Below, one piece after another: positions 26,999 to 30,900 of a DNA stretch of 64,000 bases (position 1 is the first letter of the stretch; each line of letters opens with the position of its first letter). The DNA comes from Schmidtea polychroa. Its lineage: Eukaryota. The notes under the pieces are model-generated. The model saw nothing but the letters and a program-made list of their open reading frames with translations, had not been told where the DNA came from and did not search any database. The stretch is from contig CM097885.1 of assembly GCA_044892525.1 (NCBI GenBank), positions 262,818,001 through 262,882,000 on the forward strand. Direction: 5' to 3'. Both the position numbers and the translations under genes were made by a program.

Positions 26999-27652
26999 TT
27001 ATTCAATCATTGGTTGGGCCTCTTTTAGGTCCCACACTATTTTGTCCAATTTCGCTAGTCTGATTTGTTCTTGTTCTTGTTTCAATTGTTCTCGGGTTTT
27101 AAATTCGGGTTTTTCTCCTTGTTTCTTGGGTCTTCCTTTTGCCCGTTTTTCCATCGTTGTTCCAGCTTCTCTGGTCATTTCATAATCCGGGTTTCTCTCA
27201 TTATCTGTTCTTGGCAATGAGCTGTCATTGTTTCTCAGCCATTCATTCCATTCGTCTATTATTTTGTCCGTTTGACCTTCTGGTGTTACTTTTGTTGGTC
27301 CTTTTTGTCGTTGGAATTGTTCGTCGGTTTCGGTTTCTGTTGTATTATCGATAATCTCCTCGATACTTAGTTTATTTGGCTGCTGATAGCTAGTTGACGG
27401 TTGGCTTGTTGTCCATATTTCCGCCCCTGTCGGCCATCTTACCAGAATTGGTGATCTTTCTCCAGCTCCTTCATCGCTGTCTTCTAATATGATTTCCTCG
27501 ATTTCCTCGGTTTCATTCGATTTACTCGCCACTTTGTCAGGGCTTGGTGTACTCAGGCTACCTTTTGTGGGTTTGCTGGATTTGTTTTTCCTTTTGATTG
27601 GTTTTCCCAATGTTTCTGCCATTGTCAATACATTGATCTCCCCCAATCTCAT
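26999..27652 (-). pseudogene. Low-complexity linker with AT-hook-like KGRPKK; probably part of the interrupted polyprotein
   Basis: Flanked on both sides by single-base frame changes (~27660, ~27000) that reconnect it to the neighbouring frames. Confidence 0.6.
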
Positions 27653-27906
27653 GGGTGTTATCCGACATCTGCATTATCATCTAATGATTTTCCTTGTAGT
27701 TGTAAATGGAATGGGGTTTCGTATGCTAATTTCTTTTTTAATTCTCTAATTTTTGTGGTTGGATGTACCTCCACTTCTTCAACATTTTTATCCGGGTATT
27801 TAATTCGAATTCGATATCTTTCTTGGGTGTCTTGTGATCATTCATGGTTTCGCCACTTTCCAATGATTTGCTCCAATTGTTCCGGGTACCATTCGTTGTA
27901 TTGTCG
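27620..27906 (-). pseudogene. Read-through continuation of the gag frame containing a third ubiquitin-like domain (two stops, one frameshift)
   Basis: Hand translation past TAG 27909 and TGA 27840 gives RYRIRIKYPDKNVEEVEVHPTTKIRELKKKLAYETPFHLQLQGKSLDDNADVG / ITPMRLGEINVL, which aligns with the ubiquitin pattern. Confidence 0.65.
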
Positions 27907-30900
27907 CTATTCCCCTATAGCCTTTACTATCTCTCTCAGATAGTGGATATTGTCTGATATTTTTAGGATGAAGTTCGCTAGTGCTATCGCTTGCCTTTTT
28001 TGATTCTTTGTCCCCGTCTCCAAGATGTCACCTAGTTGTTTGTATCTTTCCCTCTCCTCTCGATCTCTCGCCTCTTTCGCCTCTTCCCCGTCTATATCGG
28101 CATATTCACGTTCCTTCTTTCTCATCGCATGAATGTGTCTGGTTTCTGTTTCGCTTTCGGACGTGACGTCCGTTTCGCTTTCGTCGTCCGATACCGGTTC
28201 TATTTTATCCTCTTTGTATTTTGGAGGTTCGTCTTCCTCTTCCTCTGATTCACTTTCCGTTTCACCGATGTCTGTCTCTACGAAAACTCCTTTCCTGATT
28301 TCCCATTCTTTGTTTTCTGCATTCCACATCCTTTCCCATGGGGTTCGTCTGCAAGATCTAGTACTCAGTTTCTTTATTTTTCCTTGTAGTTCCTCCTCCT
28401 TTAGCCACTGTTGATGAATTTCAACTATCTCTATCGATTTTTGGTATAGCGTTTTCATCCTATCTCGTATTTCTTTCTGATATGTTACATCTCTGGTTCT
28501 GAATTCGTCCATGGGCAATATTCTAATTATTTGATGATTATCCCACATTCCCATTTTGCTTAGCGAGGTATCGTCCTCAGCCCGTAATATTATTTTATCG
28601 TACATCATGACTACATCATCTATCATACCATCGCTACTCTCGCTTCGTACTTTTTCCGTTATCTCTTGGTTTATCTTTGTTACTAAGTCATCCACCGTAC
28701 TCTGATTACTCATCTTTATTCGTCGTTTCTCCTCGTTTGGTAACCATATGGTTATTTCTAATTTCTTTGGTTGCGTTTCTTTTAACCTCCCATATTTGTG
28801 GATCAGATTTATGGTTCTCCAATCGCTCATCCTGAGCAATTCTGTATCCCGCAGTCGACTCATTAGTTCATGCATAGCTGGAGTTCGTTTTGTTATGAGC
28901 AGATCCCAGTTATCTTCAACTTGTTCTTGGATTTGTTTGATTAATTTATCTAGATTTCGTCGCAAAGTGCATTGTTTTATTTGCTCTAATTTTAGCCTGA
29001 TATTAAAATCGTATTCGGCCTTGGCGTCCTTAGCCCATTCGTGAACATTGGCTAGTTGCTTCTCTTTATGCAACTTCAATATTTGAGTTTCTCCTGGCCA
29101 GATCAATGCATCTATTAGGTGCATATCTGGTTTAATTTGTTCTCCTTGATACTGATACAGATATTCTTTCATTCTCGAGCTGCCCAAATGTTCTCTTATC
29201 CAATCAAAAAGCTCGTCTGTGACTGTATTTTTTATCCATATTCTCTCGAGCCCTTTACTCGTTCCGATTTTTATTACATAGCGTGTTGTTTCCGCTTGTT
29301 TCATTTTTTCCATATACTTCTTTATTATCGCTTTCTCCTCGCTTGGTATTAAACCTTTTTCGTTTCTTTCTAGTTTCATTATCTTTTGTATGAAGCGTCT
29401 ATATGGTATAAGGTCGATGAACTCCTGGTTTCTTACTACCACTGGAAGTATTTCCTTTACTTGTTTTATCGCTTCCTCTCTTTCCTTTCTCAACTTCATC
29501 TCGATATTCTCATCTTCACTTTCACTTGTTACGTCGCTTTCACTCTCATCTTCGTCTGCACCGATCTTTTCTCTTAGTTGTTCGATATTTTCATTTAACT
29601 GGAATATTTCTCCGTCGAGGCTACTCACATAATCCTCTTCGTCATCCGTTGATAATACCTTCTTTGTCGTCTTCATCATATTAATTCGTAAATTTCTCAT
29701 TCTTGGTACTTTCTTTAGCTTTTTATTCTCGAATATCGTTAGCTCCTCGGAGTCTGATTCTTGTATCATATCATGATTTAGATGATTAATCTGTTTCTTA
29801 TTTTCGTCGTTTTCCGCTTCCGTTTCTGTTTTGATTTTCTCGTGTTCTCTTTCGATTTTATCTTTTATCTTCTTCCAGAATATTTTCTGAATTCTCTGAT
29901 TTCGTTTTAATGGTGTTGTTGGGTTTTCCTTTTTAGCTGCTGTAATCGCTTCTTTCGGTTTCTCTAGTTCGATCAATGGGACTACTCTTGGATTCTTCCC
30001 ATAATTATAGCAATATTGCTCTTTTATCTCCTTTACCATTCTCATCATATTTATTCGTAATGGTTGTTCTTGTCGCTGCTGAATTCGCTCTCTTTTTATT
30101 CTTTCTTCTTCGGCTTGTAGCCTCTGCCATTCTTGTGCATGTTGTTGTACTTCATAATTGTTAAGATTCTCGGTACTCCTCATCATACGTATATTCTGAG
30201 TTTGTTGTGGCGCTGGTTCTTGTCTTGGTCTCATCATTTGTTGCATCATTTGTTTCATTTTGGAAATTTCTTGCATCACATTCATTTGTTTTCCCTCACT
30301 GGTGTTACCTTGTCGTTGCTGATTTGGTGCATAATTATTATTTCGCTGTGGTGGTCGTTGTTGTTGACCCCTTTCTCGGCAGTCTCTTGAGATGTGACCT
30401 GGCTGACCACAGTTAAAACATCCTCTCAAATTTTCCGTGTGTCCTCGTCGTCCACACCTATTACAATTTACGTTTCGGTAACAATCCCTATCCCAATGCC
30501 CCGGCTTGCCGCATGTCCGGCATTGTTTATTATCGTTCGCATTTCGTCGATTATTAAAATTGTTTCCATTATTTGAGTTGTTGCGTTCGTTGTTATTCCC
30601 ATTTGATCGTCCTTGTGGTGGTTTGAAAATTTGATGCGCGCCTGGTATAAACTGATTCATCTTTGGTTCGTGATTGTTGTTATCTCCATTTTCCGTTTTC
30701 GCCGTTGCTGTTGCGATTCTTCCCTCCTCCTGCATGACATTCATTTGTGCTGGGAGGTGTAGTTCGCATCTTGTGGCCCAATCTATGGCCTCTTCTAGTG
30801 TTTTACACATTTGACATCCCACTGAGGCTCTTACCTCCTCTCGGCGTAGTCCTTCTATGAAATACCCAATTAAATTTTCCTCCGGCAAGTTTCCGTTCAT

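Follow-up and report, generated by a model that had tools for sequence, protein, structure and literature searches.

The stretch of DNA analysed here, called the window below, comprises 64,000 nucleotides of the Schmidtea polychroa genome (GenBank assembly GCA_044892525.1, contig CM097885.1, positions 262,818,001 to 262,882,000). Its minus strand carries a 27.7-kb long terminal repeat (LTR) retroelement, which by its layout is a Burro-type giant Ty3/gypsy element. Three segments of the element's Gag-Bcl2-Env-Pol polyprotein, here named UBL1, UBL2 and UBL3, resemble ubiquitin. The explanation that we prefer, and to which we give roughly even chances, is that each forms part of a repeated unit in which a helix bundle is followed by a domain predicted to fold like ubiquitin (ubiquitin-like domain, UBL). 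Without a di-Gly, these units would be non-covalent docking modules, released by protease as unit 1 plus unit 2 and as unit 3 plus the Bcl-2-like domain, and acting on ubiquitin and cell-death signalling of the host. Some half of the giant polyprotein had carried no annotation before. The unit is kept by each of the three clades examined, the number of copies ranging from one to three; being under strong selection and having predicted cleavage borders, it offers discrete proteins of 150-340 residues suitable for expression and testing. The view of the element family as a whole is unchanged, and the third UBL has already been published.

Position, reading frame and conservation

The peptides quoted for the three segments in the original prediction lie where it had placed them, on the minus strand. 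The units and the frame that holds most of them are as follows.

27907..30972, minus strand: 1021-codon open frame holding the three CCHC knuckles, unit 1, unit 2 and the greater part of helical domain 3
29287..29478, minus strand: helical domain 1, the most diverged of the three (unit-1 profile aligns over the last helix and the UBL, P 0.003)
29059..29286, minus strand: UBL1, likely beta-grasp (profile comparison)
28768..29043, minus strand: helical domain 2 (unit profile and hidden Markov model comparison)
28504..28767, minus strand: UBL2, likely beta-grasp, with an insertion of about 10 residues after the helix (profile comparison)
27820..28050, minus strand: helical domain 3, four predicted helices, two stops in the window copy (model of the natural copy L005)
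27611..27819, minus strand: UBL3, predicted beta-grasp, frameshift near 27660 in the window copy (Pfam and predicted structure)

UBL1 and UBL2 share the 1021-codon frame with the zinc knuckles. UBL3, described earlier as hidden by stops, does lie behind two of them (27907-27909 and 27838-27840), and the frameshift splits it so that its final 17 or so residues fall in another frame. Among 29 copies of the window's family, designated family A (24 of the 25 best matches and five from lower in the list), 25 keep UBL1 to UBL3 in one open frame, so these lesions are peculiar to the window copy. The segments are internal parts of the Gag-Bcl2-Env-Pol polyprotein; the claim that they are appended to Gag holds for the precursor only. 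As the original prediction had it, none ends in di-Gly: Gly-Gly is absent within 14 residues past UBL1, UBL2 and UBL3 in all readable copies (0/29, 0/26 and 0/29), and none follows the UBLs of the sister families. Because this motif is missing, the proposal that the UBLs are incapable of conjugation is supported.

The units are under strong selection. Pairwise dN/dS across the 29 copies is 0.039, 0.031 and 0.063 for UBL1, UBL2 and UBL3, 0.119, 0.033 and 0.065 for helical halves 1, 2 and 3, and 0.131, 0.084 and 0.062 for linkers 1, 2 and 3; the pairs are non-independent, and L006 was omitted, its score and frame length being equal to those of L005. Two points here tell against our interpretation: linker 3 is as conserved as UBL3, and a low dN is favoured in the UBL1-UBL2 region because the copies were chosen by their similarity to it.

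A repeated unit of predicted helix bundle and UBL

A helical domain of 65-95 residues precedes each UBL. The original prediction had missed this partner, along with the likely release by protease and the presence of the third UBL in print for Burro (PMC6431247). In the predicted structure of L005, helical domain 3 forms helices at residues 2-15, 18-34, 38-54 and 60-75, with block predicted local distance difference test (pLDDT) values of 86-95 over residues 1-70; the two-domain model of helical domain 3 and UBL3 has a predicted template modelling score (pTM) of 0.68. A hidden Markov model (HMM) of the units of families B, C and D aligns to family-A helical domain 3 and UBL3 (E 3e-9), and judged by this alignment the helix-UBL pair is homologous across clades. 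Copy number is one, two or three depending on the clade, families B and F being two-unit families. The unit tree groups sequences by position and clade, its deep order not being settled where long branches meet, and one family-A row was left out of alignment A9. The direction of change among one, two and three units is not set by the Env tree, which is unrooted, is without family E and includes one badly broken row.

It might be supposed that the units have no host target and are structural: they could help folding, act as spacers or bind the element's own integrase, Bcl-2, TRAF or RING proteins. In all three clades examined, the stretch from the knuckles to the Bcl-2-like domain contains at least one unit, whereas the MATH domain shifts between the polyprotein and an accessory open reading frame (ORF), and the pTM hints at a fixed arrangement. 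However, the varying unit number and the deep divergence between units are more like those of diversifying binders, and the neighbouring cargo is host-signalling in kind. A structural role is therefore considered unlikely.

Evidence for the ubiquitin fold

The original prediction assigned the beta-grasp pattern to all three segments. For UBL3 the predicted structure has this fold, making the assignment firm at the level of a model; its Pfam match to PF00240 (E 3e-4) is below the cut-off. For UBL1 and UBL2, whose structural model failed, the fold is likely from profile comparison. The scan used profiles of other element families with host ubiquitin and NEDD8, containing no family-A or family-E sequence. 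Along 2,550 residues, UBL3, UBL1 and UBL2 were the three best non-overlapping windows of 123; UBL1 ranked second and UBL2 third of 119-123 windows. In a profile comparison, UBL1 reached P 1.2e-4 over 53 columns, exceeding 40 of 40 shuffles, and UBL2 reached P 6.3e-3 over 60 columns. UBL2 also matches Pfam PI3K_rbd (E 0.007), and its family-E orthologue matches OTU1_UBXL (E 0.006) and UCH_UBL1 (E 0.085).

Several results count against the fold of UBL1 and UBL2. The AlphaFold model of units 1-2, from a 7-row, two-family alignment, has a pLDDT of 36.6, and its strand-helix order is compatible with a beta-grasp for UBL1 only. With this model, Foldseek gave nothing significant (many PI3K ABD, RA and UBL rows, at E 0.7 or worse) and a VIA search gave long helices only. 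A smaller profile leaves both segments non-significant (P 0.07 and 0.22), and UBL2 falls to P 0.1 once host ubiquitin is removed from the profile. Pfam gives no ubiquitin match for UBL1, and profiles of UBL1 and UBL2 themselves found no ubiquitin among PDB sequences. These results, with the weak likeness among the three UBLs (P 0.007-0.6), would suit an alternative in which UBL3 alone is ubiquitin-like and the other two segments, as unrelated alpha/beta domains, resemble just the pattern. This we consider quite unlikely, given that UBL1 and UBL2 attain their ranks with profiles free of families A and E, that the alignment in register includes the last helix of the helical half, and that UBL2 orthologues match three ubiquitin-fold Pfam families.

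Word-indexed searches found no homologue outside the genome, and neither did units 1-2 when run with HMMER against all 1.84 billion representatives; the libraries are mostly microbial, so this absence tells little.

Processing and candidate function

The borders of the proposed products are suggested by a repeated five-residue pattern. Its occurrences ahead of units 1 and 3 are listed here with the linker between units 2 and 3.

29674..29688, minus strand: protease-site-like motif ahead of unit 1, a candidate cleavage site (28/29 copies; at the same place in family E)
28138..28503, minus strand: linker with an acidic tract and PPxY (PPxY in 29/29 family-A copies); family E has a MATH domain here
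28123..28137, minus strand: protease-site-like motif ahead of unit 3, a weaker candidate site (28/29 copies)

Seven polyprotein frames contain the pattern 8 times, where 0.45 occurrences would be expected. Besides the places ahead of units 1 and 3, it lies at the borders between capsid and knuckles, RNase H and integrase, and integrase and ankyrins, and a score trained solely on five family-E sites places six pattern sites within the top 7 of 4,509 9-mers. Other points weaken the case for cleavage: the pattern was drawn by eye from the same sequences, the ORFs that served as controls are short (no occurrence against 0.21 expected), families B, C and D have no match to it, and the unit-3 site falls outside the top 22 9-mers by the family-E-trained score. 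Family E itself has a clear site before unit 3.

The element protease would cut at this pattern to give one product of unit 1 plus unit 2, with MATH in family E, and another running from unit 3 through its linker to the Bcl-2-like domain, with its C-terminal end in the hydrophobic segment ahead of Env. Through this segment the second product could be anchored in a membrane. In five families the segment (26480-26530, minus strand) stops 7-8 residues short of the Env start motif; it probably serves both as the Bcl-2 membrane anchor and as the Env signal peptide, possibly as one helix. The released units may then dock non-covalently on host ubiquitin or cell-death signalling proteins. This role is suggested by the Bcl-2, TRAF, RING, ankyrin and BIR cargo (BIR in other elements of the genome); that it is inferred from neighbouring cargo counts against it. 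Modelled as a complex with unit 3 without use of the alignment, residues 60-165 of the upstream RING protein gave an uninformative score (0.02).

A 'VSSL.GE.FQ' stretch common to families A and E (29590-29630 approximately, minus strand, and about 2550-2600 of L076) is located in the poorly conserved acidic linker from the protease-like site to unit 1. It is possibly a linear binding motif.

The original prediction saw the UBLs as decoys or adaptors for endosomal sorting complexes required for transport (ESCRT) or the proteasome. Along these lines, they could work while on the Gag precursor, as ubiquitin mimics recruiting ESCRT or proteasome receptors for budding or turnover. Budding comes before protease maturation in retroviruses, the element has an envelope, and the PPxY between units 2 and 3 is present in all 29 family-A copies examined. 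Ubiquitin fused to Gag is reported to substitute for a late domain, but this rescue requires both L8 and I44 (PMC2958808). In a MAFFT alignment, in which the register of UBL1 is least certain, UBL1, UBL2 and UBL3 have S, P and P at the L8 position and Q, M and Q at the I44 position; sister families have K, R, T or Y. The L8/I44 hydrophobic patch is thus not kept, the V70 position being left unassigned. Identity to host ubiquitin is just 13-18 of 76, the linker PPxY has no counterpart in families B, C and D, and the PPxY of family E is inside MATH. The proposed ESCRT or proteasome role is therefore weak, and action as ubiquitin mimics on the precursor is quite improbable.

Possible relatives of the helical half

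Searches of the PDB with helical-half profiles gave no significant solved relative, and no TFIIS N-terminal-type domain (TND) chain was among the 21 and 40 rows at E<=10, an absence that excludes nothing. If the helical half were a TND, the unit could serve in the nucleus as an adaptor for factors of transcription elongation or chromatin. With an element-only unit HMM, run over 1.26 million translated residues, 3 of the 12 TND loci of the host scored 3.8-8.6 bits against its helical half, and this half has four short helices with an 'IIxKW'-like stretch at its end. TND-versus-helix profile P values span 0.013-0.36, the most favourable being 0.013 and 0.037, whereas five of seven helix groups have P 0.1 or worse. 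Further, all scores are non-significant (E 0.06-1.8), the sliding-window ranks are based on 6-18 columns, and Pfam shows no Med26 match for nine helical domains. A TND identity is decidedly improbable. Lentiviruses borrow LEDGF, and by analogy Burro elements might have built and serially duplicated their own protease-released adaptor, a TFIIS N-terminal/IBD-type domain joined to a UBL, that engages host transcription-elongation factors or tethers integrase to active chromatin, which is very improbable.

Comparison with known systems

Burro1/GYPSM1, a giant Ty3/gypsy element of planarians, has an ORF of ~4,800 residues encoding gag, three CCHC knuckles, a Ubi2/SUMO-like (PF11976) motif, BCL-2, an in-frame env, protease, reverse transcriptase, RNase H, integrase and ankyrins (PMC6431247, which cites Jurka 2007 and Grohme 2018 on Burro). 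In that review the one Ubi2/SUMO-like motif is between MATH and BCL-2. Family E has exactly this order (MATH, UBL, BCL-2), and the published motif therefore corresponds to UBL3. The window family differs in having three UBLs, each behind a helical domain that the review does not mention, and in a polyprotein without MATH, with TRAF as a downstream ORF. The literature searched contained no account of UBL1, UBL2 or the helical partner, although figures and supplements of Grohme 2018 and Lee 2026 (Dev Cell) may annotate them. The analysis adds two further probable UBLs, a helix-UBL repeat whose copy number differs by clade, and predicted borders for its processing.

Env strings in the supplement of PMC13524379 for Smed_errantivirus_1 and _2 match, by eye, the Env starts of the two-unit families F and B; this likeness and the layout of the element both point to a planarian host. 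The word 'ubiquitin' is absent from the main text and the 7 supplements searched of that paper; the matching families carry two units. Planarian genomes contain many Burro elements, and one of their cargo genes is reported to support stem-cell survival (PMC13465017).

Compared with integral UBLs (ISG15, SUMO-like Rad60 SLDs, BAG6, Dsk2, OASL and PI3K ABD), identity is about 20% each and no one family stands out; none of the 50 best solved chains spans the helical half too. A ubiquitin fold within a viral polyprotein is shared with Gag-ubiquitin fusions and with the ubiquitin inserted into pestivirus polyproteins (BFVD rows). Those systems carry near-perfect ubiquitin with the L8/I44 patch or a di-Gly processing site, whereas the UBLs here keep neither.

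The host element and its surroundings

The remaining features of the element are listed in the order of its transcription.

34538..36540, minus strand: 5' LTR (TG...CA), 98.7% identity to the 3' LTR
33612..34109, minus strand: upstream accessory ORF with a C3HC4 RING finger (Pfam PF13920, E 7e-8)
30803..31585, minus strand: N-terminal part of gag (capsid, Retrotrans_gag, E 0.003), the remainder cut off by a frameshift in the window copy
26600..27002, minus strand: Bcl-2-like domain, then the hydrophobic segment ahead of Env (Pfam PF00452, E 0.049)
22059..26480, minus strand: env (Monjiviricetes-type fusion glycoprotein), protease, reverse transcriptase remnant, RNase H and integrase zinc finger
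18024..22138, minus strand: integrase core and ankyrin repeats, in pieces in the window copy (Pfam)
16020..17459, minus strand: accessory TRAF ORF with RING, zinc fingers and MATH (Pfam)
8813..10817, minus strand: 3' LTR (LTR comparison)

The Burro assignment follows from several traits: LTRs enclose an element of close to 30 kb, a single giant ORF covers gag, env and pol, a BCL-2-like domain and env lie in frame after gag and before protease, and ankyrins come beyond integrase. MATH_TRAF_C, a trait of Burro1 sensu stricto, is absent from the window family's polyprotein and present in that of family E, whose in-frame MATH has 38% identity to that of the TRAF ORF. No BIR match was found among 16 window proteins scanned. 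The Bcl-2 Pfam match is stronger in sister families (1e-5 to 5e-3). Several frameshifts and stops make the window copy defective, its reverse transcriptase remnant is without the YxDD core, and the LTR ends show no clear target-site duplication. Close copies in the genome number at least 120 (those scored out of 935 candidates), many with a single open frame of 4,730-4,817 codons.

Between the RING ORF and gag, the leader contains at least five copies of a 79-nt tandem repeat (32576-33049). Four more accessory ORFs of 129-334 codons (13166-15826 and 17497-17886, minus strand) are mostly coiled-coil-like or with hydrophobic segments and have no Pfam match at the cut-off. Two 1,829-nt copies, 99.9% identical and in opposite orientation, are present just inside the 3' LTR (10836-12664) and outside the element (39000-40828). 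They contain no ORF of more than 88 codons and no terminal inverted repeat, and the repeat is probably a very young non-coding insertion. Also outside the element are two ORFs of 1049 and 165 codons (60061-63686, minus strand).

Other repeat families with related cargo

A different repeat family (L046, L047, L049-L051 and L053-L055; for example C4:28850646-28853855) carries near-perfect host di-ubiquitin in frame. Its first ubiquitin copy has a Gly-Gly end, the second is diverged, and scraps of Rab1 and of a proteasome alpha subunit lie upstream. The sequence that follows the di-ubiquitin looks, by a motif, like a BEL/Pao-type Gag.

Dozens of short frames with a Bcl-2-like match are scattered through the genome and have one in-frame TAG in common (for example C1:50168106-50168414 and C1:34775875-34776186). 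This suggests another repeat family with Bcl-2 cargo, in which read-through of the stop is possible. Finally, a 392-codon BIR ORF is present in more than 100 copies (for example C1:203543860-203544054), often ~13 kb downstream of family-E MATH matches, and fits the published B-IAP cargo of Burro1.
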